From a virus (lineage: Duplodnaviria; Caudoviricetes): a stretch of DNA of 64,000 bases. Shown piece after piece: positions 3,754 through 22,447 of the stretch. The position numbers and the translations under genes were made by a program. The stretch's first letter is position 1, and the number at the start of each line of letters is the position of its first letter. The stretch lies in IMG/VR virus record IMGVR_UViG_3300049574_000143, positions 4,358 through 68,357 of that record; one strand, written 5' to 3'. A model generated the notes under the pieces. That model saw only the letters and a program-made list of their open reading frames with translations, did no database searches and was not told the origin of the DNA.

Positions 3754-5094
3754 TCAGTCATATTCTGGGAGCTGCTGGTCGCTGGTCCGGATGTAGAGGG
3801 CCCCCACGCGGTCAAGGAAGATGGTGGAACCCTTCAACACCAGGCACCCCTTGCGGTGCAGCTGGGCGACAACGACACGGACATCGTCGGCGTCGGCGGA
3901 CAGCCTCTTCGCGAGTCCCGTGAGGGTGACACCGACCTCGCCGTACTCGGCGACAGCGCGCAGCAGCCCCTTGTCCTTGTCCGACAACGGCGGAAGGTCG
4001 GCCTCGGTCTGCCGATACCACTTCGGCCTCGGCTTCACCGCGAGAGCCTGGCCGGGGCCCGGGGTGACGAGGTCGAGCTCCATTTCGCGGGCTTCGGCAA
4101 GGTCTTTCTGGGCGCGGGTTTTCACCTTCACCGTCATATTCCGTTTATCGGCTTCCACTTCGAATTCAGCATCGAGTGCGCCGAGGATTGCAGTTGATCC
4201 CCGCGCACGCCCACCAGACGCCCCGGAGTGGTGTACCAGTGCCACGCACGCTCCGGTGACCTCTTTGAGGACATCCAGTGCAGCCACGACCACTCCCATT
4301 TCGGAGGCGCTGTTTTCTTCCAGACCGACGGTGCATCGAGCCTGGGTGTCCAGGATGATGAATTCAAATCCGCCGCGCTTAGCGGTCCGGATGAGGGTCG
4401 AAACGTCTTTCCGGTCTCCCAGCTGGACGGCTCTCTCATAGAAATGCACTCCGGTCATCGGGCGTTTGTTCTGGCATTCCCAGGCGCGTACTCGGCGTTT
4501 AATACCACGGACACCTTCGGCGACGACGTAGAGTACTTTCGACTGCACGGTGTGATTGCCGGCCCACTTTATCCCGGCGCCGACACATGCCGCCATGTCG
4601 AGCATCACGAACGACTTATAGGATTTCGGTGGCCCGTACAATCGGACAACCGATTCCTTTACCAGAAAGCCTTCGATAAGCGGGTCCGCTTCCGGCAATT
4701 CGTCCAGCTCCATGGACGAAAGCAGGCTGAAGGTGTCACCGTCGGCGTCGGCGGCACCGAAAAGCGCCTGGCGCTCCTCCTCGGCCATGGCGGCGGCGGC
4801 GTTCCGTGCCGCCCGGCGTTTCTCGACCTCATCCTCGGTGCGCCGGTCGAGCCGCGAGGCGGCCTCCGCCCCGCCGGTGGCCTGCTGAACCGCCAGCGCC
4901 ATGTCGAACTGCGCCTGGACCGCGGCATCGGCACCCAGCTGCTGCCGTATGGCGTCGGCGTTGCCGTCCCGCAGGGCGAGGGTGGCGGCGAGGCTGACGA
5001 GGGTGCTAGTCGCAGCGGATGCAGTATCCCTCGTCGTCCCAGACGGGGAGATGCCATCGCCGGACCCGTCGTTTGATGGCTGCGAGAAGACCAC
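3754..5094 (-). CDS. RepA/AAA_25-type replicative DNA helicase
   Basis: Walker A GPPKSYKS, Walker B IILDT, LVHHSG and RGSTAILGALD motifs; AAGGAG RBS before GTG. Confidence 0.88.
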   Translation of the reverse strand: MVFSQPSNDGSGDGISPSGTTRDTASAATSTLVSLAATLALRDGNADAIRQQLGADAAVQAQFDMALAVQQATGGAEAASRLDRRTEDEVEKRRAARNAAAAMAEEERQALFGAADADGDTFSLLSSMELDELPEADPLIEGFLVKESVVRLYGPPKSYKSFVMLDMAACVGAGIKWAGNHTVQSKVLYVVAEGVRGIKRRVRAWECQNKRPMTGVHFYERAVQLGDRKDVSTLIRTAKRGGFEFIILDTQARCTVGLEENSASEMGVVVAALDVLKEVTGACVALVHHSGASGGRARGSTAILGALDAEFEVEADKRNMTVKVKTRAQKDLAEAREMELDLVTPGPGQALAVKPRPKWYRQTEADLPPLSDKDKGLLRAVAEYGEVGVTLTGLAKRLSADADDVRVVVAQLHRKGCLVLKGSTIFLDRVGALYIRTSDQQLPEYD

Positions 5095-5701
5095 GCCGCT
5101 CCTTATTCAGTTGTGGGGACAGGCATTGCTGCTCGCCGACCGGCCCCGGGCAGTCCATCGCGTTGGCGCCGCACGCCGGCGGCGGCACCTCGCAGTACTC
5201 GTAGCAGGCGGTGCACGCGCATCCGCAGGCGCCGGCTGGGCCCCGGTCGACCTTGCCGCCGACGCGGCCGGCGAGGACGTCATCCTCGAACTTCCGTAGG
5301 TTGGCGTCGTACAGCCGGTGCGCCGGTACCTCCCGCAGGGCCTCCTCCGCGGTTTTCGGGCGCCCATGCAGCGGGCAGTCGCCGGAGATCAGCCAGGCCT
5401 CATCCTCGGCGGCATGATCTCGCAGGATGTTCGCCCAGGCTTTTGGCCGGCAGCGGCAGCCCATGGCGCCGTGAGGCTCCTGCACCGCCACCGTGCAGCC
5501 GCTGTAGAGGCAGTCGTAGCGCCGGTCGGCGGTCGGGTCAGCCCTGACGGTCTCCACCGGCATCGTTGACGTGCAGGCGGCCATCTGGAGGGCGGTCAGC
5601 TCCGCCTCCTGGTGGGTGCCGCCGTAGATGGCGTAGCGCCGGTACTCGTCGGTCTTCGGCGGGCGCTCCCGGGCGACACCGACGGTGATGTAGTGGATCA
5701 C
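5006..5701 (-). CDS. Hypothetical Cys-rich protein
   Basis: GTGA overlap with the upstream gene; CGCACTAC and other Cys clusters; 3' end overlaps the helicase start. Confidence 0.55.
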   Translation of the reverse strand: MIHYITVGVARERPPKTDEYRRYAIYGGTHQEAELTALQMAACTSTMPVETVRADPTADRRYDCLYSGCTVAVQEPHGAMGCRCRPKAWANILRDHAAEDEAWLISGDCPLHGRPKTAEEALREVPAHRLYDANLRKFEDDVLAGRVGGKVDRGPAGACGCACTACYEYCEVPPPACGANAMDCPGPVGEQQCLSPQLNKERRGLLAAIKRRVRRWHLPVWDDEGYCIRCD

Positions 5702-5937
5702 GGCAGCCAGTCCCGGGGGTATCCGTGCTCGTCGACCAGGTGTTCGGGCCAGATCTCGGTGCAGGTGTCGCAGTTGGGGGCTTCGTCGGGGGCCTCGATG
5801 CCGAGCAGCTCGGCGCCGCACACCGCCTTCATCCCGATGAACTTCTCGGGGTTGCAGACGGAGCAGGTGAGGTGCGCCGGCGGCTCGGTAAGGGTTTTGC
5901 CCGATTCGGTTAGTTTTTTGGTGAGAACGTTACTCAA
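5698..5937 (-). CDS. Hypothetical protein
   Basis: 79 aa, CSVC and CDTC motifs, coupled to the next gene. Confidence 0.6.
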   Translation of the reverse strand: MSNVLTKKLTESGKTLTEPPAHLTCSVCNPEKFIGMKAVCGAELLGIEAPDEAPNCDTCTEIWPEHLVDEHGYPRDWLP

Positions 5938-5980
5938 GTCACTCTTGTCCCGGTTCGTTGCATAGTGCTAACACGGATAC

Positions 5981-6397
5981 ATGGATTGGCGGACTCTGTA
6001 CGTAGCCCGGCGGGTGATGCCGGACGGACGGCTCGCGTATTCGAAACTCGACGAAGACGGGACCATGCAGTTCTGGCTCAAAGCGGGCTTCATTCACCCC
6101 GTCCTGGTCAGGGACATGGGGGCGCTGTCCAGTCAGATCGCCTACAGCGGATGCTTCGACCTGGACCCTTCGAGGGTCGGCATGAATCCGCTGTTCTCGG
6201 CGTGGATCGAACGGGTGCCGGGCGAAGACTGGCCGCCGGGTGTCGTCGTCCGCCCCAGAATCGGCGGAAAGGCGTTCTTCGAGATCCAGTGCCGCCAGGA
6301 CCTGATCCGCCCCGAGCTGGCCGCGGAGATGAACGAGCAGGCGCTACCGGCGGTGTCGGGGGCACTGGTGCCGCCGGCGCTGACGCCTAATCGATGA
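5981..6397 (+). CDS. Hypothetical protein (only plus-strand gene in the early arm)
   Basis: 138 aa globular-looking ORF filling the gap between minus-strand genes; high GC3. Confidence 0.7.
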   Translation: MDWRTLYVARRVMPDGRLAYSKLDEDGTMQFWLKAGFIHPVLVRDMGALSSQIAYSGCFDLDPSRVGMNPLFSAWIERVPGEDWPPGVVVRPRIGGKAFFEIQCRQDLIRPELAAEMNEQALPAVSGALVPPALTPNR

Positions 6398-6830
6398 GCT
6401 TCCAGCTCTCGTTGGTGAAGTGGTACTGATCCCTGACCACCCAGTTCATGGCCTGCCGCATGCCGTCCCGGCTCTTGCAGCGGAGCCGGCCGAAGGCCAC
6501 CTTCGCGCCATTCCCGTTGGTGCGGACGGCGTGCACGTAGAGCTCTTCCGTCCCCGGCTCCTGGATGTTCACGCTCCAGCCGGTCCGGCGCTCGTAGGTG
6601 CGGTCCTCCTCGAAGAACTCCGGGAGATGCTCGAAGTTCTCCCGGAAGTGGGCGATGCTCGTTGACAGTTCGTCACCCTTCAGCTCGTACAGGACGTGCT
6701 TCCTGCCGACGTAGGTGATGACGCGGGTCTGCTGGTCGTAGATGCCGGTGGTCTTGCCCCGGACCTTGTCGCCGGCCCTGAAGAACGGGGCCGCCTCCTC
6801 GATTTCGTTGTACGAGTAGAGCTTCGCCAT
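6387..6830 (-). CDS. Hypothetical protein
   Basis: 147 aa, strong coding bias. Confidence 0.75.
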   Translation of the reverse strand: MAKLYSYNEIEEAAPFFRAGDKVRGKTTGIYDQQTRVITYVGRKHVLYELKGDELSTSIAHFRENFEHLPEFFEEDRTYERRTGWSVNIQEPGTEELYVHAVRTNGNGAKVAFGRLRCKSRDGMRQAMNWVVRDQYHFTNESWKLID

Positions 6831-7157
6831 CTAGGTCCACCATCGCCTTATGTCGGCCCCGCGCATCCGCGCGTAGGTCTTGAACTCGACCATCCGGTCT
6901 ATGTCTTCGTGGGTGTTGCACGGCCACATGCGGTCCAGCCACCAGGTCTCCCAGGTGCGCAGGTCGTAGCCGTGCAGGTGCTCCAGCTTCGTCGCCACCT
7001 TGCATTCGCGCGGGTAGAAGCCGCTGTCTTTGATGAACAGCTGTGCCTGCCGGTAGAACGGCGCGATGACCATCCGGAAGGGGATGACGACGTCGGGATG
7101 ATGCCAGATCTCACGGGGCCGGCGAGACGACGACCCCGGCCTCTTCTGTGAAGCCAA
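6831..7157 (-). CDS. Hypothetical protein
   Basis: 108 aa, abuts the next gene; start uncertain. Confidence 0.6.
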   Translation of the reverse strand: MASQKRPGSSSRRPREIWHHPDVVIPFRMVIAPFYRQAQLFIKDSGFYPRECKVATKLEHLHGYDLRTWETWWLDRMWPCNTHEDIDRMVEFKTYARMRGADIRRWWT

Positions 7158-7383
7158 AGCGTTCCTTCAGTACTTCGCGGCAGATGCCGCACTTCGACTT
7201 GCCTTCCGCCTTGCCCGTGGACGGGAGGTCGCCGGCGTCCGCGCCCAACGTCGCCTCGCACACGCCCCGATGGGCGGTCCCGTAGGTCGTCACGCGGACG
7301 GCGTGGGCAAAAAAAGACGCCCGGTCGGATGACCAGACGTATTCGAACTTGTCGGAAGGGATGTGTGGGCCCATCCAGCTCAC
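7111..7383 (-). CDS. Hypothetical protein with C-terminal CxxC
   Basis: ATGA overlap; KCGICREVL. Confidence 0.65.
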   Translation of the reverse strand: MSWMGPHIPSDKFEYVWSSDRASFFAHAVRVTTYGTAHRGVCEATLGADAGDLPSTGKAEGKSKCGICREVLKERFGFTEEAGVVVSPAP

Positions 7384-7793
7384 AGGCGGGACTTGAGGAC
7401 GTAGGAGTGGTCGGGGAGCTTGCGGACGTAGATGGCGGGCCTACCGGCGAAAGGGATGTCTTCCCAGTCCAGAAACGCGTCACTCTGGACGTTCTTCGGT
7501 ACCGGCCACTCGCCGTCAGCGTAGGCCTCGGCACGGATGATCAGCATGTAGCTGCCGTCGGCGGCGACACCCAGGACGCGGTAATCGTCGCCTTCGCCGA
7601 GCGAGTAAGTGAGGATGTCGCCGGCCTGCGGCTCGAACGGCTCCTCGGTGTAGTTCTCGTTGTCCTTGCGGATGACGAACGGGTCGCGCTGCCCGTACAC
7701 CTTGTCGACGTAGTTGACCACGTAGTGGTCGTCCAGCTCGGCCTCGACCTTGACGAAATGGCCTCCGGCGGCCTTGAGAGTCTTTATGGTCAT
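7380..7793 (-). CDS. Hypothetical protein
   Basis: AAGGA RBS, MTIKTLKAAGG..., coding bias. Confidence 0.7.
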   Translation of the reverse strand: MTIKTLKAAGGHFVKVEAELDDHYVVNYVDKVYGQRDPFVIRKDNENYTEEPFEPQAGDILTYSLGEGDDYRVLGVAADGSYMLIIRAEAYADGEWPVPKNVQSDAFLDWEDIPFAGRPAIYVRKLPDHSYVLKSRL

Positions 7794-8248
7794 TCTGTGT
7801 TCCTTTTCAGGTAGTTGAGAGCTCTCTCTACGCGTTCCGCGGTGTCGCCAAGTCGCCCGATGGCGGCATTGCATCCCCGGCATAGAACTCCGCGCACCTT
7901 GCCGGTTTCGTGACAGTGGTCCACGCAGAGGTCGCCCTCCCGGTCGCAGATTTCGCATCTACCGTCAGCGGCTGCGATCATTTCGAGCCACCGGTCAAGG
8001 GTGATCCCGTACTTCTTTCGCAGTTCCCAGTCTCGGGCGTATCCTGTGCGTTCACGGAAGGACCGTTGATAGGCGTTTGCGGAATCACGGAAGGTCCCGT
8101 CGGCTTCCTTATTTTCACGCCAGCGTTCCCAGCGGACCTTCTGGCGCGCTGATTGACACTCCTTCTTCTTGCAGTAGATGTTCGTGGATCTGTATCGCTC
8201 GAACTCGCCCCCGCACTGGGCGCATTCGCCGCTTTGAGGCCAAGTCAT
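7790..8248 (-). CDS. Recombination endonuclease VII family protein
   Basis: KYGITL...CEIC...VDHCHETGKVRGVLCRGCNAAIG. Confidence 0.88.
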   Translation of the reverse strand: MTWPQSGECAQCGGEFERYRSTNIYCKKKECQSARQKVRWERWRENKEADGTFRDSANAYQRSFRERTGYARDWELRKKYGITLDRWLEMIAAADGRCEICDREGDLCVDHCHETGKVRGVLCRGCNAAIGRLGDTAERVERALNYLKRNTE

Positions 8249-8739
8249 GGGAGTCCTACCGCGCCATCCGGCCAGATGATCGTGTTGATCTCCGTGGTGT
8301 TCCGGACCTGACGAATGCACCCTTCGCAGGGTTCGCAAGAGACGTACATGGTGCCGCCCGTCATCAGGCCAGCACCACGCCTCTGGGCGTCAGCAAGTGC
8401 CGTCTGTTCCGCATGACTGGCGATGCAGGCACCCCTGCCGGTGTCGTACGACGAGCCGGGCGGGACGGCGTCCGGGCAGGGCCAGTCCCGACCACAGGCG
8501 CAGACGGGGCCGATCTTGTACTTGCTATTGAGGCCGCGCTCCACCAGCTTCCAGTGCCGCCCTCGCGGGCAGGCGCCCTCCAGGCAGCCCTTCTCGCCCG
8601 GCCGGGTGCCGTTGTAGCCGAGGCCGACGAATCGCTTGTCGACCACGATCAGGGCGCCGACCTTCCGGCGGGTGCAGTCGCCCATCCTCGCCAGCCAGTC
8701 GGCGCCGTCCAGGTGCCATTCGTCGCGGTCGGGCCTCAC
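8245..8739 (-). CDS. Deoxycytidylate (dCMP) deaminase
   Basis: CTRRKVGA, GYNG, HAEQ and PCEGC zinc-deaminase motifs; GTGA overlap start. Confidence 0.88.
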   Translation of the reverse strand: MRPDRDEWHLDGADWLARMGDCTRRKVGALIVVDKRFVGLGYNGTRPGEKGCLEGACPRGRHWKLVERGLNSKYKIGPVCACGRDWPCPDAVPPGSSYDTGRGACIASHAEQTALADAQRRGAGLMTGGTMYVSCEPCEGCIRQVRNTTEINTIIWPDGAVGLP

Positions 8740-8984
8740 GCCGCCACCCGGCCTTTCCCGTGGCATGTCGGGCAGTCGTGGACCGCGGGGAACGGGGCGT
8801 CCTTCCAGGTTCTCCCCCGGAGGGCTTCCCTCGCCGTGGTGTAGGAGACGCCGAATTCCGTCGACAGCTCCAGGATGCCGATCTCGCCTTCGGCGTACCA
8901 CTCGCGCATCTCGGCGACCTTCTTCGGGCTCAGCTTCGCGTGGTGGTGGGCGGTGCCCTTACGTGCTGGCATGCCCCACCTCAT
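8736..8984 (-). CDS. Small HTH DNA-binding protein (resembles the C-terminal DNA-binding part of HNH homing endonucleases)
   Basis: GTAHHHAKLSPKKVAEMR...LSTEFGVSYTTAREALRGRTWK. Confidence 0.6.
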   Translation of the reverse strand: MRWGMPARKGTAHHHAKLSPKKVAEMREWYAEGEIGILELSTEFGVSYTTAREALRGRTWKDAPFPAVHDCPTCHGKGRVAA

Positions 8985-9050
8985 TTAGTTGCATGGCGCA
9001 AATGTCATGCACACCATAGGATCCCGTGGGAGGACGATCTGAGGGCCCCC

Positions 9051-9398
9051 TCACTCGCCGGCCGCCTCGGCTCCCAGCTCCTTGAAGAGGAGGATGACGT
9101 CCTCGGCGGTCCGCTCGTCGGCGTTGTTCCACTCGACCAGGCAGTCAGGCACGGGTCCGCCGGGGTGATTGATCTCCCCGCGCAGCCGGAGCAGGCCTTC
9201 GGCCATGCGGCCCGCCTCGCCGACAAGCGGCCACTGATCCGGCTTGTCGTACCCGAGGTCCATGCCGTACCCGAGATGCCCCCCACTGGCCGCCCAGAGG
9301 GCGCCGAACGCGCAACGCTCCCCGGTGGGCTTGGTATTGACGTGCTTGCAGTGGCCGCTCTCCATGAGGATCTCGGCGGCTCGTTCGAAGATGTTCAC
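9051..9398 (-). CDS. Hypothetical protein (DUF6197-like)
   Basis: AAEIL...G.C......CA.GAL...WN....RT.EDVI; similar to 22898..23296. Confidence 0.6.
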   Translation of the reverse strand: MNIFERAAEILMESGHCKHVNTKPTGERCAFGALWAASGGHLGYGMDLGYDKPDQWPLVGEAGRMAEGLLRLRGEINHPGGPVPDCLVEWNNADERTAEDVILLFKELGAEAAGE

Positions 9399-10495
9399 AG
9401 CTTCCTCTTTCGTCGGTCGATGCCCGTGCCGGGCGGCGCCGGCCGGTTCTTCTTGGCTTCGATGGCCCGCTGCATGGCCGTCGGCTTCGGGGCCTTGACC
9501 AGCGACACCTTCTTCGGCTCGTCGAGGAAGGGGATGGGGGTGTTGGTGCTGATACTGAAGGTGAAAGAGGCACCCTGAAGCTGCGTCATAGCCGTCTGGA
9601 GCGCCTTCGAGGCGTCCTTGATGCTGGCGACCAGTCCCGATACGTCGACAGTCCTCGGCGCCTCCGGCTCGATACCGAGAGCGCTAAGGTCCGGTTTCGG
9701 GTGCGCGGCATACATCTCGTCCGGGCTGTCCCACAGCTTGACGCCGTACCTGCCGGCGACGTGGGACACCTTGTCCTCGATGACCTCGGCCTCGGACTTG
9801 ACGGTGAATTGCGGACTCATGTCCCGGTAGTTCCACACGTCCTCCGCCCTGATCCGCCCCCGCGGCGGCTTCCCCTCCCTCCAGTCCATGTCCCACGGGT
9901 CGTGGAACCTGTAGTAGGACACCCCAGAGGAGGGGCGAGGGCTACCCCAGAAGTCGTAATCGACGGCGCGCGGCACCGGCTTTTCTCCGTTACACCACAT
10001 GTGCTTCGCCCAGTCGACGGCCATTCCAGTGATGCGCATCTTCTCGGCACGGACGCCGAGCCTGCCCATGATGACCTTCCCCTGCACCTCGCATGCCGCG
10101 CGGACGATGACGAGATCATTGCCCCACTCCTCGTCGGCCAGGAAGTGCTTGCCGTAGTCGCGGCCCCACCAGATGCTCCTGTAGAAGTCGGTGGCCGGGT
10201 CATAGTGGGCATAGAACCCGCAGTGGCAGTTGACCTGGGGGGCGGGAGTGGAGTGCTTCGCCTCCTGGATGTAACGGCGCGCACCCACCGAGCATCGGGC
10301 CTCATGCACCTCGACGCCCGGGTGGTAGTCCTTCCGCATCGCCCGCCGGTACCGGTCGGAGGGGGAGCCTATCGCGCCCATCCGGAGGATGATGTTGTTG
10401 AAGGTGTCGACCAGGAAGTGCCGGTAGACGGTGAGGGATTGGGGGACGAGGGTGGTCTCCGAGTTGCTCGTCCCGTAGTCAGTCTGGTCGGGCAC
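9395..10495 (-). CDS. Hypothetical protein with HxxP...CxCGFYA motif
   Basis: 366 aa; HSTPAPQVNCHCGFYA and V.G.V...G.RAEK. Confidence 0.75.
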   Translation of the reverse strand: MPDQTDYGTSNSETTLVPQSLTVYRHFLVDTFNNIILRMGAIGSPSDRYRRAMRKDYHPGVEVHEARCSVGARRYIQEAKHSTPAPQVNCHCGFYAHYDPATDFYRSIWWGRDYGKHFLADEEWGNDLVIVRAACEVQGKVIMGRLGVRAEKMRITGMAVDWAKHMWCNGEKPVPRAVDYDFWGSPRPSSGVSYYRFHDPWDMDWREGKPPRGRIRAEDVWNYRDMSPQFTVKSEAEVIEDKVSHVAGRYGVKLWDSPDEMYAAHPKPDLSALGIEPEAPRTVDVSGLVASIKDASKALQTAMTQLQGASFTFSISTNTPIPFLDEPKKVSLVKAPKPTAMQRAIEAKKNRPAPPGTGIDRRKRKL

Positions 10496-10504
10496 GGGTG
10501 CTCC

Positions 10505-10621
10505 TTACGCGGGTACGGGCTCCGCCGGCGCCGGCGTCTCCGACGGTGTCTCGACGGGGGCGGTCTCGGGGATGGGCTCGAACTCCACGATCTTCGGGTT
10601 CTCTTCGCCGATGTCAGCCAC
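10505..10621 (-). CDS. Small acidic Pro-rich peptide (38 aa)
   Basis: GTG start after GAAAGG; ADIGEENPKIVEFEPIPETAPVETPSETPAPAEPVPA. Confidence 0.55.
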   Translation of the reverse strand: MADIGEENPKIVEFEPIPETAPVETPSETPAPAEPVPA

Positions 10622-10910
10622 GCTTCTTGCCTTTCTTGATGTGGTTGTTGATGGATTCCGAAAGGTCCATCTTTTGTCGTGCGTCGAGGTCGACCGTCGT
10701 GATCGACTCGTGGATATCAGCCCGGCCACCGAGAACCAGCTCCTCGTGCACGGCGAAGACACCGGCGCAATCTTCGATATGCTCTCGGGCGAACTCCCCG
10801 AAGGAGCGCCAGTGTTCGTGATCCATGGCACTGTCGGGGACGTTGTCGAAGATGAGAAGGAACTGCTTTGTCGGCAGAACGTAATGCCTCAGCCGAAGTT
10901 TCTTACCCAC
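10614..10910 (-). CDS. Hypothetical protein
   Basis: GTG start after AAGGGAAGAGG; coding bias. Confidence 0.6.
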   Translation of the reverse strand: MGKKLRLRHYVLPTKQFLLIFDNVPDSAMDHEHWRSFGEFAREHIEDCAGVFAVHEELVLGGRADIHESITTVDLDARQKMDLSESINNHIKKGKKRG

Positions 10911-11155
10911 GTCGCCTCTTCCCTTTGATGCTGGACGCCGAGGGCGAATGCCTCGGCCCAGGTGCGCCGGCCGTACCAGCCCTCCCCGTCGGACGGGACC
11001 CATTCGTCGGTCTCGCAGCCAAGGCAGGTCACGTACCAACGCCCGTCAATGAACTTGGACTTGTAGACCTTCACCTTGTGCCCGTCAATGAACTTGGACT
11101 TGTAGACCTTCACCTTGTGCACCGGGGCGCACCCAGGGCAGCGTTCTACGGCCAT
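10889..11155 (-). CDS. Hypothetical protein with internal 13-aa duplication
   Basis: AGGAG RBS; HKVKVYKSKFIDG twice. Confidence 0.65.
   Translation of the reverse strand: MAVERCPGCAPVHKVKVYKSKFIDGHKVKVYKSKFIDGRWYVTCLGCETDEWVPSDGEGWYGRRTWAEAFALGVQHQREEATWVRNFG
11041..11118. repeat. Perfect 39-bp tandem duplication
   Basis: GCCCGTCAATGAACTTGGACTTGTAGACCTTCACCTTGT x2. Confidence 0.95.
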
Positions 11156-13282: not shown

Positions 13283-13289
13283 GGGCGCC

Positions 13290-14527: not shown

Positions 14528-14537
14528 GGTGGTTCTC

Positions 14538-14983: not shown

Positions 14984-15420
14984 TTCGCTTCCTCCTGGGC
15001 GCACTCGTAGCCGCAGCCGGCGTAGCCGGCCAGGTCCACCCAGCTGTCGCGCTTGCCGCGCGAGTGCATCAGCCGGGAGATCTTGATCAGCGGCACGATG
15101 ATCGCGATGTCGGAGGGGAGGATCTCGTTCTCCCCGCTGTGGTCCACACGCCGGTATCCGTACGCGTTGAGGGCGGCGGCGGCCCGCTGGAAGTCCTGTG
15201 TGGGCGGCCCGTACTGGGCGTTCCGGTCGCCAGTGATGAGGTCGATCGCCTCAGTCAGGGCCTCTGCCCGGGGCATCGGCTTGACCAGCGGGATGGCTGA
15301 CCTCTTGGGTGGCTGTACCTGTACCGCGACCTCGCACTTGGGGTGCATGTCGCAGGCGCTCATGTAGTCGTGCTCTCTGTCGTGGTAGAAGGCGATGTCC
15401 GGGTGCGTGTTCGCACGCAT
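14980..15420 (-). CDS. DUF6378-like protein
   Basis: AIDLITGDRNAQYGPP.QDF...KISR...DSWVDLAGYA. Confidence 0.75.
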   Translation of the reverse strand: MRANTHPDIAFYHDREHDYMSACDMHPKCEVAVQVQPPKRSAIPLVKPMPRAEALTEAIDLITGDRNAQYGPPTQDFQRAAAALNAYGYRRVDHSGENEILPSDIAIIVPLIKISRLMHSRGKRDSWVDLAGYAGCGYECAQEEAK

Positions 15421-15434
15421 GCGGGGCGCCGCCA

Positions 15435-15581
15435 TTACTGGCCGCTCCAGACGTCGTCGTAGACGTCCCACATGGTGTCGAGGTCGAGCGACTCGACTCG
15501 GGCGATGACGGCCGGCGCCAGCTTGTTGACGACCAGGTAGCCGATGGTGAACGAGACTGCGAAAGACAGGAGTTGCTTCAT
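15435..15581 (-). CDS. Small membrane protein (48 aa)
   Basis: Manual translation MKQLLSFAVSFTIGYLVVNKLAPAVIARVES...; AAGGA RBS. Confidence 0.55.
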   Translation of the reverse strand: MKQLLSFAVSFTIGYLVVNKLAPAVIARVESLDLDTMWDVYDDVWSGQ

Positions 15582-15587
15582 TGGTCC

Positions 15588-16202
15588 TTACCAGATCAGG
15601 CATGTGTAGGGGCCGGCGCGACCGACACCGACGGCGACACCGGCGGGTATGAGGGCCGGGTCGGGGTCACCGACGGACGCCAGGGAGCAGAGGTCACCTC
15701 TGACGACCCCGGTCTGTTGCATCGTCGAAGCGGCAGCGACAGCGGCCGGGCTGGTGTACCAGGTGGTCGGCGACGATTCCGGCGTCGCAGTCGGCGACGG
15801 AGACGCGGTCGTGGTGGGGCTTGGGCGTGGTGAAGATGATGTGGACTCCCTCACGGCGGAAGCCGACGGCCTCGCAGTCGCACGATTCGGGGTCGCAGAC
15901 GGCCGGGTAGCGGTCGCCACCAGGGTTGGCGTAGGCGATGAGCTCGCCGACCTTGCCCTGTGCGAGGTGCTCGTTGATCTCGTGGATGACGGCGTCGGGG
16001 TTGGCCATGTCGGGGGTCCGTGGGGGGTCAGGTCGGGCGACGATGCGACCGAAGGGGTTGTTGTAGAGGTAGTAACGGGCCTCGTCGATGACGGATCTCC
16101 GTTCGTGGCCCCGAAGGCGACGCCGGCTACGGCCAGGACGGCGAGGGCGCCGAGCAAGATGCCCCGGCGTCGCTTCGGCCGGGGAAGCCGGTGGTCACCC
16201 AT
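15588..16202 (-). CDS. Membrane-anchored Ser/Thr/Pro-rich protein with C-terminal Cys pair
   Basis: Basic N-terminus plus TM (RRRGILLGALAVLAVAGVAFG), S/T/P stalk, C..C end. Confidence 0.65.
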   Translation of the reverse strand: MGDHRLPRPKRRRGILLGALAVLAVAGVAFGATNGDPSSTRPVTTSTTTPSVASSPDLTPHGPPTWPTPTPSSTRSTSTSHRARSASSSPTPTLVATATRPSATPNRATARPSASAVRESTSSSPRPSPTTTASPSPTATPESSPTTWYTSPAAVAAASTMQQTGVVRGDLCSLASVGDPDPALIPAGVAVGVGRAGPYTCLIW

Positions 16203-16239
16203 TACCGCTTATTCCAGACCTTCTCGCAGGCTGGGGCCT

Positions 16240-16518
16240 TCACTTCAGGAGCCGCTCGACCTCGGCTACCTGGGCGTCGGCGAGGTCACTGAGGGCCCTT
16301 GCCACGGCGAGCGCCTCACCGAGCTCCTGGTTGCGGGGGTCACCCTTCTTACGGCGGGCCTCCCCGGTGGCGAGGACCCTGCTTACGCCGTACCCGTCCT
16401 CATGGGAGACGTCGGCCAGGGTGTTGGTGCCGTCATAGAACACCTTCACCGACAGGTTGATCTCACCCACAGAGATCGTGTCGCGGAGATACGGCTCGGT
16501 GCCGGGGGTGTCACTCAT
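16240..16518 (-). CDS. dsRBD-fold (DUF1876-like) protein
   Basis: GEARRKKGD..NQELGEALAVARAL. Confidence 0.6.
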   Translation of the reverse strand: MSDTPGTEPYLRDTISVGEINLSVKVFYDGTNTLADVSHEDGYGVSRVLATGEARRKKGDPRNQELGEALAVARALSDLADAQVAEVERLLK

Positions 16519-16525
16519 GAGTTCC

Positions 16526-17287
16526 TCACTTCACCTGTGTCTTGGTCATGCCGAGGTCGCGTTTCGTGCTGCGGCTCCAGGAGCCGCAGTCCTTGCACTG
16601 GTATTGCTGGAAGCGACCGACGCTCGTGCGGGCGAAGCCTCGCCGAATGAGCTGGCCGGAGCCGCAGTTGGGGCAGGAGTCCTCGATGCCGGAGTAGAGC
16701 CCGTGGTGCGGGTGGTCCTTGATCCAGGGTCGGACCTTGTCGTAGATCTCTTCGAGGAGCCTGACGTCCTGGATGTTGTAGCGCTTCATCTGCGCCCAGG
16801 CCTTCGGGTCGCCGGCCAGGCACTTGATCCACAGGTCATGGCCCTCGTGCTTGACCTTGCCGGCGAGGCCCAGCTGCTCCGAGATGTAGGCGAGCTTGTT
16901 GGAGGGGAACGCGAAGTTCCCTCGCATCACCTTGAGCAGGTCGATCGACTTGTAGGGCTCCGGTGGTGTGAGCCCGTTCAGGACGAACTCGGTGTTGAGG
17001 CGAGGCAGATCGAACTTGTCGCCGTTGTAGTGCATGACGACGTCCGCCTCGGACAGCAGCTGATGCGCGGCCTGGAACATGTCATCCGGACCGTGCTCGA
17101 ACTCGCTGTACCAGTGGACCTTGCGCTCGTCCATGAACTTGGCGCCGAAGCACATCGTGCGCGGCCGTTCAAGGATCTGGTTGATCGCGATGTTCTGTTT
17201 GAACAATCCCCACGCGTGGGCGACGACCGGGCTCGTTTCTATGTCCAAGGACAAGATCCGAGGGCCGCCTATTGAGTTGTTTGACAT
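16526..17287 (-). CDS. RNase H-like / DEDD-type 3'-5' exonuclease with Zn ribbon
   Basis: LDIET, YNGDKFD, IDL, YNIQDV motifs; CPNCG...CKDCG. Confidence 0.85.
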   Translation of the reverse strand: MSNNSIGGPRILSLDIETSPVVAHAWGLFKQNIAINQILERPRTMCFGAKFMDERKVHWYSEFEHGPDDMFQAAHQLLSEADVVMHYNGDKFDLPRLNTEFVLNGLTPPEPYKSIDLLKVMRGNFAFPSNKLAYISEQLGLAGKVKHEGHDLWIKCLAGDPKAWAQMKRYNIQDVRLLEEIYDKVRPWIKDHPHHGLYSGIEDSCPNCGSGQLIRRGFARTSVGRFQQYQCKDCGSWSRSTKRDLGMTKTQVK

Positions 17288-17290
17288 CCC

Positions 17291-17506
17291 TTAACCGATG
17301 TTCGAGCAGTAAAGGCAGGGCTCCTTGGCCGTACAGCGCCAGGGCTCCTGCCAGTCTGCGTAGATGATCGAATCCCACTTCCGTACGTCGCAGCGGTAGG
17401 CCGCCAGCTTCGCCAGCAATTCCGCCCTGGTCAGCTTATTGTCTCGGGCGATGGCTTCGGCGAGGGCGAAGATGTCGCGGTCACCGGGAAGGTAGATCGT
17501 CTCCAT
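17291..17506 (-). CDS. Hypothetical protein
   Basis: 71 aa; C-terminal CTAKEPCLYC. Confidence 0.55.
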   Translation of the reverse strand: METIYLPGDRDIFALAEAIARDNKLTRAELLAKLAAYRCDVRKWDSIIYADWQEPWRCTAKEPCLYCSNIG

Positions 17507-17696
17507 GGAGAATGCACGGCTCCTTCGCGGCAGCCAGGGTGCAGGTGCAGCTGGGGCCGTAACCGTTCTCTTCGGCGTAGCGGCCGGGTGACCAGTGGTC
17601 TATGTCCATCTGGATTTCGGCCACACGCTCGTCGGATACCGTGCAACACACCAACTTGCACTGGTTCTTGGGGGCTGCCTTCTTACGAGGCGGCAT
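17481..17696 (-). CDS. Hypothetical Cys-rich protein
   Basis: 71 aa; CTC...PC.LHG. Confidence 0.55.
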   Translation of the reverse strand: MPPRKKAAPKNQCKLVCCTVSDERVAEIQMDIDHWSPGRYAEENGYGPSCTCTLAAAKEPCILHGDDLPSR

Positions 17697-17889
17697 CTGA
17701 GCGGAGACCCATGAACAGGTTCTTGCAACCCGGCGGTGGCGTGGTCTTCCACCAGATGGTGTGACCGCGCCCGCAGTTACAGGTGATGATGGGGAACCGG
17801 AGCTTGGCGGAATCCCTAAGGGAGATGGCGCCGGCGATCGGATTCACCTTCGGCCGGACCCATGTCCATTCGTCGCGCTTAGCGCTCAT
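17683..17889 (-). CDS. Hypothetical protein
   Basis: MSAKRDEWTW...CNCG. Confidence 0.5.
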   Translation of the reverse strand: MSAKRDEWTWVRPKVNPIAGAISLRDSAKLRFPIITCNCGRGHTIWWKTTPPPGCKNLFMGLRSDAAS

Positions 17890-18064
17890 CCTCTGGGACA
17901 TCCTCCTCGTCGACGACCTCAACTCCCCAGGAGTACTCCTCGTTTACCAGGTCCTGGCCGATCTCTTTGAGGTCTCTCTCGCTGTATTCAGTTAGGGGGT
18001 CGAGTCGCTCGTAGACTTGCTCGTCTCCGTAGCGACCGGAGATGCTGACCCGGAGGTACTTCAC
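17879..18064 (-). CDS. Hypothetical acidic protein
   Basis: GTGA overlap, coding bias. Confidence 0.6.
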   Translation of the reverse strand: MKYLRVSISGRYGDEQVYERLDPLTEYSERDLKEIGQDLVNEEYSWGVEVVDEEDVPEDER

Positions 18065-18342
18065 TCGATCCAGCCCAGGTTCCTGCACAGAAAGCAGTCC
18101 GGCTGCTCGGCGATGTGATCCTTGAACCAGTTGTCCTTGGGTGCCTTGTCGGTGATGGTCGGCCCGACCGGGACCGGTATCGGCTTCTCACCCCGCGTGC
18201 GTGTCCACCGGAGAAGGAAGAAGCTAAGAATGCCGGCGACACCGTCACCGATACTCCAGGCGACGTTCTGCTGCTTGATCTCCATGGCCATGAGGCACAG
18301 CCACATGAACAGGAAGACCCATTCGATGCGAATCTTCTTCAT
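18061..18342 (-). CDS. Membrane protein
   Basis: Two hydrophobic segments; AAGGAG RBS. Confidence 0.65.
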   Translation of the reverse strand: MKKIRIEWVFLFMWLCLMAMEIKQQNVAWSIGDGVAGILSFFLLRWTRTRGEKPIPVPVGPTITDKAPKDNWFKDHIAEQPDCFLCRNLGWIE

Positions 18343-19220
18343 GGTTTTGCTCCTTGCAACCGGTACGCAGACCGGATCGTTGACAGCGCCTGCCGCTCAC
18401 CACCGTCAAGGCCACACTCCAGGGCGGCGGGGACGAGGTGCTCGGCGGCTACCTCTTCACTGGCGCCGTCCTCGCACATCGAACGAGCTGCCCAGAGAAG
18501 GCAGTTGTTCCGGTTCCCCTCCTGTGCGAAGCGGACGGCGTCAATCAGGCCTTGGTAACTGATGTGGCCAGGCTGAGAAAAGGTGCTCTTCACCCTGGTC
18601 GGCTTCGGCTTCTCTCGGCAGAGTTCGACGAGCCAAGCCGGACAGTCGGCGATGGGGGCGTCGTTCTCGACTACGTACGACCCTTTAGCAGTCGAAGAGC
18701 CAGCCGCCAGAACATACCCGCCTCTTTGGCCGCCGTTGCCGCGTACATCGAGAAGGCCAGGTACAGGCGAAGCCTGCGATGCCTGCACGCCCTCCGGCCA
18801 CCGGAAGTAGCGATGGGCTCCCATCGAAGCAGTGCAGACTCGATAGGTTCGCTCAAGAGCGTTGAAATCCTGAGAGAAACGTTCGCACATCGCTCGCAGA
18901 ACATCGTCTCCGTCGAGGAAAGGTCCGAGTCGCTCATGCAAATACTCCCACGGTCCGCCCTTCAGGATGTCGGGCTCCTTAGCGATGTCACTGTCCAGGA
19001 CCAGCAGCCCCGAGGGCTTGGCGGCGACGCCGACATTGGCGGTCGGCGAATACGTCCACCAGTCGATGACCCTGCCGAGATCATTGGTGGCGACCTCACC
19101 CCACCGGATCCGGTAGTCGGCATCCGGACGGATCCTGTGGGGCAGCTTGTCGCCCGGCTCGACCGGGAAGACATGGAACCCACGCGAGACCGCCTGGGCG
19201 GCGTGCGCGAGGTTGCTCAC
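18339..19220 (-). CDS. Bifunctional DNA primase/polymerase (prim-pol)
   Basis: GFHVFPV..GDK.P, NVGVA, LLVLDSD, G.H.YF, DVRG..GYVLAAGS; C-terminal GNRNNCL (PriCT-like). Confidence 0.9.
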   Translation of the reverse strand: MSNLAHAAQAVSRGFHVFPVEPGDKLPHRIRPDADYRIRWGEVATNDLGRVIDWWTYSPTANVGVAAKPSGLLVLDSDIAKEPDILKGGPWEYLHERLGPFLDGDDVLRAMCERFSQDFNALERTYRVCTASMGAHRYFRWPEGVQASQASPVPGLLDVRGNGGQRGGYVLAAGSSTAKGSYVVENDAPIADCPAWLVELCREKPKPTRVKSTFSQPGHISYQGLIDAVRFAQEGNRNNCLLWAARSMCEDGASEEVAAEHLVPAALECGLDGGERQALSTIRSAYRLQGAKP

Positions 19221-19459
19221 GTCCCTACGGAGGTATCGCCGGCGTACAGCCAGTTGGCCAGGATGAGGGCGTCAGCGGCGTCGACCTCGTAGGTGCCGGC
19301 GGAGCCGTCGCCTTCCGGGTTCCGGCGCCACCTCTTGGCGGCATCCGTAAGGAGCTGGTTGGCGATCTTCCAGGCGTCACGCCGCTCGGCCAGGGCGGTA
19401 AGGGCGTTGTGTTCGGAGCACTGGCAGTCCCGGCACTCCGGGTATGGCCGTTCGGCCAT
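19217..19459 (-). CDS. Hypothetical protein
   Basis: CRDCQC; AGAAGG RBS. Confidence 0.7.
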   Translation of the reverse strand: MAERPYPECRDCQCSEHNALTALAERRDAWKIANQLLTDAAKRWRRNPEGDGSAGTYEVDAADALILANWLYAGDTSVGT

Positions 19460-19575
19460 GGTTCACCTTCTTCAGTTGTGGGGGCCGGGGGCCGTTTGCG
19501 CCTGTCAGGTTGCGTAGTGACGGTCCCCGGCGAAGCAGACGAGCAAAGGGGCCCTATCCCGTCCGCGTTTTGGCA

Positions 19576-19646
19576 CCGGGGGCGGCGGCCGTCACCGCCA
19601 GGTGTCCGGGGTACTTCCCCGGGATCATGTTTTTTGCCGCCCCCGG
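19576..19646. other. Multi-stem structured intergenic element
   Basis: 11-bp outer inverted repeat (19576-86 / 19636-46) enclosing CCGGGG-TACTT-CCCCGG and an overlapping GGCGG..CCGCC stem. Confidence 0.5.
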
Positions 19647-19651
19647 CAGTC

Positions 19652-19915
19652 TCAGAACTCCTCGACGTCGTCCAGGGAGTCCGTGTCGGTGTTCAGGTCG
19701 GCGAGGGCGGCCTGAAGGGCGTCGTACGCCTCCGCCTCGGCCTGCTCCAGCTCGTCCTTGACGGCGGTCAGGGCGTTGGCCTTCTCGGAGGCGACGCGGG
19801 CCTTCTCCTCCAGGTCCACGGCCCGGGTGGCGGCCTTGCGGGCACGGTCGGCGGCGGCTTTCGCCTTCTTGTACTGAGTGAACGGGTTCGGGGTGCGGTT
19901 ACGGGTGTCGCTCAC
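19652..19915 (-). CDS. Coiled-coil hypothetical protein
   Basis: Ala/Lys/Glu-rich heptads. Confidence 0.7.
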   Translation of the reverse strand: MSDTRNRTPNPFTQYKKAKAAADRARKAATRAVDLEEKARVASEKANALTAVKDELEQAEAEAYDALQAALADLNTDTDSLDDVEEF

Positions 19916-19927
19916 GGGTTACGCCTT

Positions 19928-20245
19928 TCAGTTGCCGGTGTTCTCGACCCAGTTGTCGAAGGGGATTTGGTGGCCGGTCTTGGTCTCGACGAAGCAGCCC
20001 GAAAGGGCCTTGTAGCTGGTGGTGACATGCATGCGCTGGCCGCTCTGATGGCAGTCGGCCTGGTCGACAGTCGGCGCGATGTAGCCGACCCCGAAGCCGA
20101 TGAAGCCGAAGATGCCGACGAACATCAGCGCGAAGCTGAAGCCTTCGCCGACGCTGTCCCAGCGGAAGGCGTCCCAGCCGGCGACGATGGCGAGGATCAG
20201 GGACGGGACGGCCAGCCAGAACCAGATCTGGTAGTCACCCATCAC
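19928..20245 (-). CDS. Membrane protein
   Basis: Two TM helices plus C..C. Confidence 0.75.
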   Translation of the reverse strand: MMGDYQIWFWLAVPSLILAIVAGWDAFRWDSVGEGFSFALMFVGIFGFIGFGVGYIAPTVDQADCHQSGQRMHVTTSYKALSGCFVETKTGHQIPFDNWVENTGN

Positions 20246-21045
20246 TGGCCTGCCACGGATGCCCAGATGGCCTCGGCCTGCTGCTGCGTGGCGCCGGGCG
20301 GCAGGGTGATACCGCGCTGCTGGAGGGCCTGCACGAGTCCGGGGTCAACTGGCACCGCAGCAGCAGCCGGCTGGGGTGCGACAGCAGGCGCCCCCGATGG
20401 GGGCTGGGCAGCGGCAGGAGGGGCGTTCCACTGGGCCGCCGGTGCCGCCGGGGGCGGAGCTCCCACGGGGGCGTTCCAGGCAGGCTGGGAAGCCGCAGGA
20501 GTCGGGGGAGCAGCCGGCGAGGCCGCAGGGGGCTGCCACTGCTGCTGCGCAGGCGGGGAAGCAGGGGTCTGCGGGGTCGGGGCATAGCCCGCAGGGGTTC
20601 CCTGGGGGGAGGTCTGCTGCATGGGGTTCGGGGTCGGCCGGAACTGTCCCTGCTGATACGCCCTGTGCACCGGGTCCGCAGCAGCAGCGTCCTGGTCGTT
20701 GAAGTTCTCCAGGATCCATGGCGTGTTCCCGTTCGCGCTGGTGATCTGGTTCAGCCGGCCGAGCACCTGGCCGCCCAGCTCGTTGCGTACAGACCGGGCG
20801 AGATTGCCGAAGAGGCGGGCGCCACTGAAGAACAGCGGCCTGCCGTCGGGGCCCGCCTTGTCGACGACGACGATGTCCACGTCGGCGGCGTCGCTGAGGC
20901 CCTTGGTGGTCTTGATGTTCTCCTGGAAGACCTTCGGGTAGACCAGGAGGAGGCTGCCCTTGTGCTCGTGGGCCTCGAACTTGTCACCCGTGTTGGGTGC
21001 CGAAGGCTGCGAGAACTGGTTGTTGGGCTGTGGCGGGTATGTCAC
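20242..21045 (-). CDS. Putative single-stranded DNA-binding protein
   Basis: Compact beta-rich N-terminal domain plus long Pro/Ala/Gln tail; sits next to the Cas4-like nuclease. Confidence 0.55.
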   Translation of the reverse strand: MTYPPQPNNQFSQPSAPNTGDKFEAHEHKGSLLLVYPKVFQENIKTTKGLSDAADVDIVVVDKAGPDGRPLFFSGARLFGNLARSVRNELGGQVLGRLNQITSANGNTPWILENFNDQDAAAADPVHRAYQQGQFRPTPNPMQQTSPQGTPAGYAPTPQTPASPPAQQQWQPPAASPAAPPTPAASQPAWNAPVGAPPPAAPAAQWNAPPAAAQPPSGAPAVAPQPAAAAVPVDPGLVQALQQRGITLPPGATQQQAEAIWASVAGQ

Positions 21046-21067
21046 GTGACCTTCTATTCAGTTGTGG

Positions 21068-22447
21068 TTAGCGCTTCCCGTTACATCCGCGCGTGATGTC
21101 TCGGGCGTTGGGAAGGTAGAAGGGGCAGAAGCGGCAGTCGTCGGCGACATCGAAATCGGCGGCGACGCGGGCCTTGATCTCAAGGTCGAGTTCAGGCGAC
21201 GGTTCCCGGTCGAGGGAGTACGTCAGGTGCATCTCCGCCTTCCCGGCCTCGACCTGGCCGGCGATTATGTTGACCCGGTCGAAGGCCTCGTCGGCGATGG
21301 CGGGGTTGTAGGGCTCGGTGAAGACGTAGAGGTCGTCCAGGGTGGCTTCATCCCGGGGCCAGGAGATGATCGCTATGTGTTCGATGCGCTCGCCCTTGGC
21401 TCGGGCGCCCTTGGCATACACATGAGCCTGGACCCGGTAAGTAGGAGACGGGCCGGAGGACTTGAGCTTGTTGCGGCTCCAGCGACCCTGGCATTTGTGA
21501 TCGTCCAGCATGAACAGTGTACGGTCAATCAGGTCGGCGGTCCCTTTCGGGACGTACTTGCTGTCGAACTGGAGACGGGTTTCTGTAGCGAAACGACCAG
21601 TGCCAGCGTTAGCCCACAGGAACATCTGCTCCAGGCCTGCGTGTATGCATGTTCCGACGAACGCCGCCCAGCCGTCACCGCCGGGATTGACAGGGGGCAT
21701 CCGCATGAGGGACAGGGCGAGCCGCCGATCACACGGCGTACCCATTTCCGAAGGCCCCATTGTTGCTTGGGCGGATCGGTTGTCCTCTGTCCTTCGGTTG
21801 TCATAGGCGTAGAACAGCTCCTTGAGCCTGGCCGTGAGCTCCTTGCCGAGGTCGGTCATGGGCTCCGCCGGAGCCTCGGACTTCCTGCCCGCTGGCTGAG
21901 AAAAGGCCTGCGCCATAGGCAGGTTGCCCATGTAGTGCCCGCAGCCCTCACCCGGACACTCCGACCCGTCATCCAGGTGGAAGCGTCCAGGCTGGCTAAA
22001 AAGCGTGGGCTCTTCGTACTGAAGATCATTTGGCTGGGAGAACGGGGTCAGGTTAGCCTCAACCTGGGCCTTGAATCTGGCCTGTTGCTCCGCCGACATC
22101 GCGTCGAGCACCGTCGCGTACTCCGTCACTCCCGGGATTACAGGAGGGGCAGAGGCAGTCGAGACACCGTCCGCCGGTGCCGGCGAGGAGGGGGAAGAGG
22201 GCGTCGAAGTAGTCGCAGACGGTGCAGGGTCCGTCGCATCGGCCGGCGATGACTTCGCACATTCCGCAGTCTGGGATGTCGCAGTCTGTTGGGTTGATCC
22301 GCATCCGGCCTCCTGGGGCACGACGGTCTGGCCGTAGTCGCACCAGTCGTCCGTGTGATCGTTCTTGTGTTTCCGGTACTTCTCCGGCTTGGTGGTGTTG
22401 CGCTTCAACTGCTTCTTGCAGCCGGGGCAGCCGATGTAGTCACTCAT
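21068..22447 (-). CDS. Cas4-like PD-(D/E)xK exonuclease with long N-terminal extension
   Basis: PSEMGTPCDRR, GTCIH, GTAD..D, DHK, QAHVY, CRFCPF. Confidence 0.8.
   Translation of the reverse strand: MSDYIGCPGCKKQLKRNTTKPEKYRKHKNDHTDDWCDYGQTVVPQEAGCGSTQQTATSQTAECAKSSPADATDPAPSATTSTPSSPSSPAPADGVSTASAPPVIPGVTEYATVLDAMSAEQQARFKAQVEANLTPFSQPNDLQYEEPTLFSQPGRFHLDDGSECPGEGCGHYMGNLPMAQAFSQPAGRKSEAPAEPMTDLGKELTARLKELFYAYDNRRTEDNRSAQATMGPSEMGTPCDRRLALSLMRMPPVNPGGDGWAAFVGTCIHAGLEQMFLWANAGTGRFATETRLQFDSKYVPKGTADLIDRTLFMLDDHKCQGRWSRNKLKSSGPSPTYRVQAHVYAKGARAKGERIEHIAIISWPRDEATLDDLYVFTEPYNPAIADEAFDRVNIIAGQVEAGKAEMHLTYSLDREPSPELDLEIKARVAADFDVADDCRFCPFYLPNARDITRGCNGKR

Follow-up and report, generated by a model that had tools for sequence, protein, structure and literature searches.

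FSQP, a candidate docking motif shared by four replication and recombination proteins of a Streptomyces-type phage

The tetrapeptide FSQP recurs in four proteins of a temperate phage of the Streptomyces type (Duplodnaviria; Caudoviricetes): a presumed replicative helicase, a stand-alone primase-polymerase (PrimPol), a protein resembling single-stranded-DNA-binding proteins (SSBs) and a Cas4-like nuclease. Our analysis concerns a stretch of 64,000 nucleotides, hereafter the window, which comprises bases 4358-68357 of one 68,357-bp contig (IMG/VR record IMGVR_UViG_3300049574_000143; G+C 64%). Judged from aligned homologues, more than a hundred related phages keep the motif at fixed places, and we propose that FSQP is this phage's form of a conserved docking motif by which four proteins of the fork and of single-stranded DNA would share one candidate receptor, a reading to which we attach a probability of roughly 0.65. 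An earlier note on the same DNA, made from its letters alone, had suggested a docking motif common to replication and recombination proteins or, failing that, a signal for modification or degradation; the homologues lend strong support to the former suggestion and make the latter less likely.

Six-frame translation, applied both to the window and to the complete 68,357-bp genome, yields exactly six copies of FSQP, all on the minus strand, all in frame with long open reading frames rich in G+C at third codon positions (GC3), and confined to four genes (Table 1). The scans reproduced the positions and codons that the earlier note had listed, and its placement of every copy in a terminus or linker holds as well: all six lie outside the domain matches (Prim-Pol 7-196, AAA_25 131-293, phrog_1674 exonuclease 193-450), and the copies of the two modelled proteins, helicase and SSB-like protein, lie in regions of low predicted local distance difference test score (pLDDT). 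By chance, 0.083 copies would be expected in a proteome of 19.4 thousand residues. When all tetrapeptides were scored in within-protein shuffles, none of 1000 shuffles gave an equally surprising result by number of occurrences (p <0.001) and 71 of 1000 did so by number of proteins (family-wise p ~0.07), so that the comparison with shuffled controls proposed in the earlier note favours the motif on the first count and not on the second. The statistics of the single genome are suggestive only and the case must rest on homologues, whose conservation makes it solid where one genome alone falls short.

Table 1. Positions of the four motif-bearing genes, the six FSQP copies and the candidate contact helix in the window
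Feature	Position	Strand	Description
Helicase	3754..5094	-	RepA/RadB-like hexameric-helicase-type ATPase, 446 aa; AAA_25, PHROG helicase/primase families
PrimPol	18339..19220	-	Stand-alone primase-polymerase, 293 aa; archaeo-eukaryotic primase (AEP) domain, linker, C-terminal helical domain
SSB-like protein	20242..21045	-	Oligonucleotide/oligosaccharide-binding (OB)-fold SSB-like protein, 267 aa; phrog_870, AlphaFold/Foldseek/VIA fold matches
Nuclease	21068..22447	-	Cas4-like PD-(D/E)xK exonuclease, 459 aa; phrog_1674, phrog_1990
FSQP copy 1	5077-5088	-	Helicase residues 3-6, extreme N-terminus
FSQP copy 2	18570-18581	-	PrimPol residues 214-217, Pro/Lys-rich inter-domain linker
FSQP copy 3	21004-21015	-	SSB-like residues 11-14, N-terminal tail
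FSQP copy 4	22031-22042	-	Nuclease residues 136-139, L-T-P-F-S-Q-P
FSQP copy 5	21989-22000	-	Nuclease residues 150-153, P-T-L-F-S-Q-P, 14 residues past copy 4
FSQP copy 6	21893-21904	-	Nuclease residues 182-185, directly before catalytic domain
Candidate contact helix	20653..20697	-	Helix 117-131 closing the SSB-like OB core; near-invariant D119, A123 (codon 20677-20679)

The earlier note had left conservation in related phages to be established, and in two of the families it is extensive. One to three copies of [FY][STA]QP occur in 100 of 120 nuclease homologues (45-100% identity), always in the arm that precedes the catalytic domain, and the consensus context is P-T-L-F-S-Q-P-A-G-R-x-S-E-x-P; across 65 close homologues the motif columns of the arm score 0.84 for conservation versus 0.51 elsewhere in it. 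Most of the nucleases carry two or three copies, whose spacings peak at 14 residues (60 cases) and 7 residues (27) among 164 family members. Copy 6 is the best conserved, with its extension F-S-Q-P-A-G-R-x-S-E-x-P: its columns reach at least 0.9 in the 65 close homologues, and F182, S183, Q184, P185, G187, E191 and P193 are each at least 90% conserved in a set of 33. The SSB-like family behaves similarly, the motif falling within the first 30 residues in 89 of 93 homologues, mostly as M-x-F-S-Q-P at residue 3 and directly preceding a conserved GD-x-F that opens the OB core.

The nuclease itself matches the phrog_1674 exonuclease family (E=2e-51, residues 193-450) and the Cas4-domain exonucleases of phrog_1990. 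Its relatives are annotated as Cas4 family exonucleases, and the closest named phage protein is the exonuclease of Streptomyces phage Dagobah. Invariant among the 33 homologues are C7, C10, H27 and C36, as well as C239, C438, C441 and C455; homology of the nuclease domain and the presence of one N-terminal and three C-terminal cysteines for a predicted Fe-S cluster place the protein, by sequence, in the Cas4-like class. The N-terminal arm consists of a zinc-ribbon-like CxxC...H...C, a Ser/Thr/Pro-rich spacer, a helix and the motif array. The zinc-ribbon-like element (residues 1-36; 22340-22447) is invariant and is kept down to Dagobah and the divergent related locus L044.

The helicase passes the Pfam AAA_25 model (E=1.2e-33, residues 131-293, 116.8 bits against a gathering cut-off of 27). 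Its AlphaFold model (mean pLDDT 86) comprises a disordered tail, a long helical region (27-116), a RecA-like core and a winged-helix-like C-terminal domain, with the N-terminus, where the motif lies, at low confidence (pLDDT averaging 48 over residues 1-10 and 44 over 11-20). All homologues with a complete annotated N-terminus open M-x(0-9)-[FY][SA]QP, and remoter ones open with F-Q-Q-P, F-R-Q-P, F-L-Q-P, F-N-Q-P or I-Q-P. Database entries often begin at an internal Met; a homologue 98% identical to the window helicase, for example, is represented by a 382-residue call that begins downstream of the motif. The DNA upstream of the annotated helicase was examined in three relatives (L045, L049 and L050, two of them of FSQP lineages), and in all three the motif lies just 5' of the annotated start, behind a plausible start. 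Gene callers often shorten the helicase start and thereby delete the motif. In the window, the helicase begins at GTG 5094 behind ACAACTGAAT and the Shine-Dalgarno sequence AAGGAG, and the SSB-like protein at GTG 21045, likewise behind ACAACTGAAT and a Shine-Dalgarno sequence; this arrangement, found at 5095-5125 and 21046-21075 on the minus strand, precedes both genes with an N-terminal motif and places both N-terminal copies within the translated sequence.

In PrimPol, which passes the Pfam Prim-Pol model (E=6.6e-29, residues 7-196, 101.8 bits; gathering cut-off 22.8), the motif sits 8-12 residues ahead of a conserved Y-S-G-L that opens the C-terminal domain. An aromatic/aliphatic-x-[QRKH]-P occupies the aligned position in 13 of 18 sequences from related loci (14 of 19 with the window's own), and the motif or a relaxed form of it is present in ~17 of the 30 nearest cluster representatives and lost beyond E ~1e-30. 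The protein also matches PHROG primase/polymerase families whose members combine PrimPol and helicase in a single chain. In the window the two genes are separate and 13 kb apart; they are fused in phrog_906 and in the homologues P0238 and P0240. Near the C-terminus of both fused homologues stands F-Y-A-P, perhaps one more form of F-x-x-P; it makes up the last four residues of P0240 and in P0238 lies 12 residues from the end. In some relatives a Band_7 (SPFH) membrane protein, which is not in the window, lies between the SSB-like and PrimPol genes (L001, 12796-13683; L002, 12763-13662).

How specific is the motif to these four families? No close DNA relative of the phage was returned by a near-identical search of phage records or by a scan of viral contigs, and relatives were therefore gathered through protein searches, giving 43 related loci with 790 called genes and 129k residues, the metagenomic genes being called by a simple program based on GC3. 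In these loci 41 genes contain the strict motif. Nuclease, SSB-like and PrimPol homologues account for 38 of them, and the other three, in the same place in the gene order, encode divergent SSB-like proteins. The motif is absent from all 121 genes of the 29 other families with homologues in the window genome, a result that goes against the refutation named beforehand in the earlier note, an equal presence in unrelated proteins. Around one related helicase that lacks the motif, the surrounding 21 kb contains none of the other three families. A looser FLSQP in 1823..2512, which the earlier note had pointed out, is real; it was rejected as part of the system, lying inside a well-aligned block and reading YAALP in a homologue.

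The earlier note had also reasoned from differing codons that conservation is at the protein level. The conclusion stands, although the codons do not differ freely: Pro is encoded in all six copies by CCA or CCT, which are rare (17% of Pro codons genome-wide), TTT encodes Phe in three of the six (6% of Phe codons genome-wide), and 11 of 12 bases are identical between the helicase and SSB-like copies and, likewise, between the PrimPol and third nuclease copies. A repeat at the DNA level was nevertheless ruled out, since codons differ among the copies and relatives use others, with CCG or CCC at 62 of 67 motif Pro codons; TTT and CTT are also raised there.

Taken by themselves, the copies in one genome might have no common function and reflect chance, low-complexity composition or shared descent of the tails. 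The tails are indeed compositionally biased, and the shuffle test by protein number leaves some room for this explanation. Against it stand the unrelated folds of the four proteins, the persistence of the motif as a conserved island in variable tails over hundreds of sequences, the lack of any other family with the motif in the 129k residues of related loci, and changes that occur in step within genomes. The homologue data contradict a lack of common function, which we regard as very improbable. The motif instead has the properties of a short linear motif: a four-residue core outside domains, in Ser/Thr/Pro-rich flanks filled with insertions and deletions and, in the two models, in tails of low pLDDT, conserved as an island across four unrelated folds. 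As far as the alignments tell, its general form is aromatic-x-Q-P with a hard core F-x-x-P, Gln being strongly preferred at position 3; position 2 is a small residue in the clade of the window phage.

The changes that occur in step bear on the receptor. In locus L008 all four copies, two in the nuclease and one each in the SSB-like protein and PrimPol, read YSQP, and in L027 Tyr starts every copy in all three proteins. On one 69-kb contig (L003/L045) Gln is gone from all five copies in four proteins (FSPT, FSKP, FSPP, FSRP and FSRP), the versions in L015 are FVKP and FVRP, and a deeper clade (L017-L026, L042 and L044) uses FLQP, FQQP and LMQP types. Since the copies lie in unrelated genes, each of these genome-wide patterns needs several parallel substitutions in one lineage. 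Such concerted variation is expected of a shared, changing receptor and is hard to square with an ultra-conserved host pocket; a receptor that co-evolves with the motif would thus be more probably phage-encoded than a conserved host hub. Only an endonuclease VII and a DUF7455 protein are conserved alongside the four motif families, and the motif is borne by no fifth family, so that the receptor would be one of the four, as the pattern suits, or else a host protein.

The cultured Streptomyces phage Dagobah has versions of the motif in all four proteins (FLQP and FSQP, FMQP, two LRQP, and FAQP), the FAQP copy sitting on its 'RadB-like' helicase. Mycobacteriophage Paola has no motif; it encodes its own clamp and a short Cas4 nuclease, and has no SSB-like homologue, the whole-record search for this family having covered GenBank phage records rather than metagenome contigs. 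In the replication region of Dagobah (L046, MT711977), 18905-19141 is annotated as a Pup-like ubiquitin-like protein that ends in GGE.

The phage groups in protein searches with actinophages and prophages of the Streptomyces type, and full-length homologues are found in Streptomyces genomes and soil metagenomes. Its early region is on the minus strand, and among its genes are those for a tyrosine integrase, a tape measure, tail proteins and lysis. The integrase (25451-26446, plus strand; Phage_integrase match, E 6e-7) indicates that the phage is temperate, in agreement with the abundance of prophage homologues that Streptomyces genomes contain. Among the genes examined, none for a DNA polymerase turned up. 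The host polymerase must therefore be recruited, and one may ask whether the motif serves to attach the four proteins to a hub of the host, be it the beta sliding clamp at its canonical or another site, the clamp-loader subunit tau, DnaE, SSB or RecA, and so brings in the Pol III machinery. The clamp offers a precedent. Its binding motif, also found as QLxLxL, is carried by Pol II, III, IV and V, Hda, MutS and others, and FSQP resembles it as a peptide of 4-6 residues in termini and loops of unrelated DNA-metabolism proteins, with an aromatic anchor and one presumed pocket. The clamp indeed works through peptide tags common to several clients, with the definitions Q-phi-x-[L/M]-[F/L] or Q-phi-x-[L/M]-x-[F/L] (PMC11139829). 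The second nuclease copy, moreover, often follows Q-P-T-L, a QxxLF-like string in some homologues, and QPPF stands at the end of some SSB-like variants, which recalls the actinobacterial SSB tip.

None of the six copies, however, fits the pentamer or hexamer form of the clamp motif, in line with the mismatch reported in the earlier note. The residues before Phe are MV, VKST, PNNQ, NLTP, EPTL and MAQA, the nearest approach being E-P-T-L-F at copy 5; FSQP lacks a Gln four positions before Phe, and its conserved residues, S-Q-P, follow the Phe instead of preceding it. Concerted drift by lineage, whether from Phe to Tyr, by loss of Gln or from Ser to Leu, would be unexpected for a pocket as conserved as that of the clamp, and a residue of the phage's own SSB-like protein, position 123, covaries with the motif. 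We consequently judge a host hub unlikely and, in a further departure from the clamp system, a phage-encoded receptor probable.

A co-evolving enzyme or adaptor would also explain concerted variation, and the motif could accordingly be a signal for processing, degradation or modification that times the replication proteins of a temperate phage, for instance by cleavage before Phe to expose an N-degron. Its terminal or linker position would suit such a role, as would position 1, where Phe, Tyr, Leu, Ile or Trp are residues of bacterial N-degrons. Yet position 2 readily accommodates Ser, Ala, Thr, Leu and Gln alike, so that Ser is not a required acceptor, and whole lineages dispense with Gln. 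Arrays of two to three copies, spaced by 7 or 14 residues, make better sense for avidity than for cleavage, cutting at the N-terminal copies would take off only 2-10 residues, and no protease or modifying enzyme is conserved alongside the four proteins. On balance a signal of this kind appears quite improbable.

Returning to a docking motif with a phage-encoded receptor, the best candidate for that receptor is, in our assessment of the sequences, the SSB-like protein itself, at somewhat short of an even chance. It is built of an N-terminal tail, an OB-like core (21-135), a disordered Pro/Ala/Gln-rich linker (~140-225) and a two-helix mini-domain (230-267); in the AlphaFold model the beta-rich core has a pLDDT of ~95 and the C-terminal domain ~93, residues 10-14 falling below 50. 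By sequence the protein falls outside the SSB families and has no Pfam, NCBIfam or PDB-sequence match, its sole family-level match being phrog_870, which has no assigned function. The top Foldseek matches of the model in the PDB are all bacterial SSBs, at a modest E of 2e-3; VIA gives modest Z scores of 4-5.4 against the OB folds of HIN, PRD1 P12, RPA70, PriB and SSB; and in BFVD uncharacterised actinophage proteins match best, with annotated phage SSBs next. Given these model-based resemblances, the label 'SSB-like' is reasonable but unproven. At the C-terminus (20242-20358) the two-helix element is conserved as DP-x-LV-x-FL-x-x-RGI...AEAIA...LPQ, and a few homologues (P0243, P0262 and P0266) add a C-terminal ...QPPF, which is reminiscent of the ...DDEPPF of the actinobacterial SSB tip.

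Within the SSB-like protein, the motif's aromatic residue may contact the helix that closes the OB core. Of 115 aligned rows, 110 have Ala at column 123, including all ~108 F-type rows, and five have Thr; these five all carry YSQP and belong to two separate lineages. One further Y-type genome has Cys at this column and another keeps Ala. In a tree built without column 123, the motif changes between Phe and Tyr four times and the column between Ala and Thr twice; both gains of Thr occur in lineages with Tyr, and one of these is, with strong support, the sister of an F/Ala row. We estimate roughly, and not by a formal test, p 0.001-0.015 for this covariation. A contact of the motif's aromatic residue with the core near residue 123 is a lead suggested by these alignments and would presumably form between subunits, because no docking in cis is predicted. 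Just past the Ala123 helix, residues 133-139 (20629-20649; pLDDT ~86) include a near-invariant G-Q-F. The site reads F-[KA]-Q-P in many homologues, a further motif-like copy, and F-R-P-T in this phage; the F-[KA]-Q-P form could be a cis pseudo-ligand for the same pocket.

Besides the shuffle result by protein number, several observations weigh against the proposal. In L048 Tyr is found in the SSB-like tail only, the nuclease and PrimPol keeping Phe, and some close relatives have a degenerate copy in PrimPol (FSKG, FSNG and YSNA). The covariation at residue 123 amounts to two or three events, too few for a sign test, and three Y-type lineages retain Ala123. In AlphaFold monomers neither the SSB-like protein nor the helicase docks its own N-terminal motif, with no within-chain interaction predicted, so that these models give no clue to the place of the pocket. 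For the Gln-less lineages no convergent change of a receptor was found: residues altered in one such lineage alone gave a few candidates in each family, none of them shared by a second Gln-less SSB-like protein. Elsewhere in the search, comparison of FAQP with FSQP gave no clean association with SSB-like columns and no covarying helicase residue was found; a proposed link of helicase R436E with Y-type motifs was rejected, the column being variable. By analogy with the FxxA motif discussed below, the RecA-fold core of the helicase remains the second receptor candidate.

If FSQP does serve as a docking motif, we envisage the following arrangement. The aromatic side chain and the Pro would insert into one pocket of the common receptor, which could thereby keep helicase, primase, nuclease and single-strand binder assembled at a fork or resected end, and the nuclease arrays, with copies 7 or 14 residues apart, may add avidity for an oligomeric receptor. 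With the SSB-like protein as receptor, its N-terminal tail would dock on the helix closing the OB core of a neighbouring subunit, leading to cooperative assembly, and the helicase, PrimPol and nuclease would copy this tail to ride on the SSB-like protein. The complete scheme, a co-evolving actinophage code in which an SSB-like hub polymerises via its own tail near residue 123 and the other three proteins mimic that tail, is tentative, and we hold it a little more loosely than the choice of receptor.

Several known systems offer partial parallels, to be read as analogies. In Rad51, whose FxxA oligomerisation peptide is copied by the BRC repeats of BRCA2, the core is likewise F-x-x-small, the proposed receptor bears its own peptide on a flexible segment, and a second protein, here the nuclease, carries a tandem array. 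Unlike Rad51 FxxA, FSQP has Pro and not Ala at position 4 and a preferred Gln at position 3, and the candidate receptor has an OB fold instead of a RecA fold. Bacterial SSBs end in an acidic tip, ...D-D-D-I-P-F or, in actinobacteria, ...D-D-E-P-P-F, with phage equivalents in the T7 gp2.5 tail and the T4 gp32 terminal domains. Similarities to the phage system include a short peptide with a key Phe, a binder that organises helicase, primase and exonucleases, and self-interaction via a terminal tail, as proposed here. FSQP, in contrast, is found on the clients and on the binder's N-terminus, is N-terminal or internal and not acidic, and the polarity would be reversed; the phage SSB-like protein finishes in a small domain of two helices, with QPPF endings in a few variants. 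As in Lambda Exo-Red-beta and RecE-RecT, finally, the gene for a recombination exonuclease adjoins that of a ssDNA-binding partner, and specific coupling is to be expected. Those pairs, by contrast, associate through folded domains, and we know of no shared linear motif in them that reaches the helicase and primase. Our search of a literature library, including phage short linear motifs and the replication proteins of phage BFK20, returned nothing on the motif, 'FSQP' appearing only as unrelated acronyms.

FSQP is not the most over-represented tetrapeptide of the genome. That is WQTF, which occurs six times within 11/22-residue Trp/Phe repeats (AWQTFWNALKTAA...) of a tape-measure-like protein (38811-42575, minus strand; 1254 residues) and resembles an ordinary tape-measure repeat.

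What would the motif mean for these phages? Peptide tags for a hub, such as the clamp motif, the PIP box and the SSB tip, are central to the building of replisomes and are drug targets. On our reading, a tag of this kind would mark just four proteins, namely helicase, primase, single-strand binder and recombination nuclease, in a large set of temperate phages and prophages of the Streptomyces type, and the uncharacterised family phrog_870 would, judged by sequence, gain a role. If the SSB-like protein proves to be the receptor, the usual arrangement, in which an SSB tail inserts into its clients, would be reversed, giving a bacterial-virus counterpart of the Rad51/BRC-repeat principle. The concerted motif variants may serve as a natural specificity series for the co-evolution of peptide and pocket, and Dagobah, being cultivable, offers a testable handle on the assembly of fork and recombination proteins in polymerase-less actinophages.

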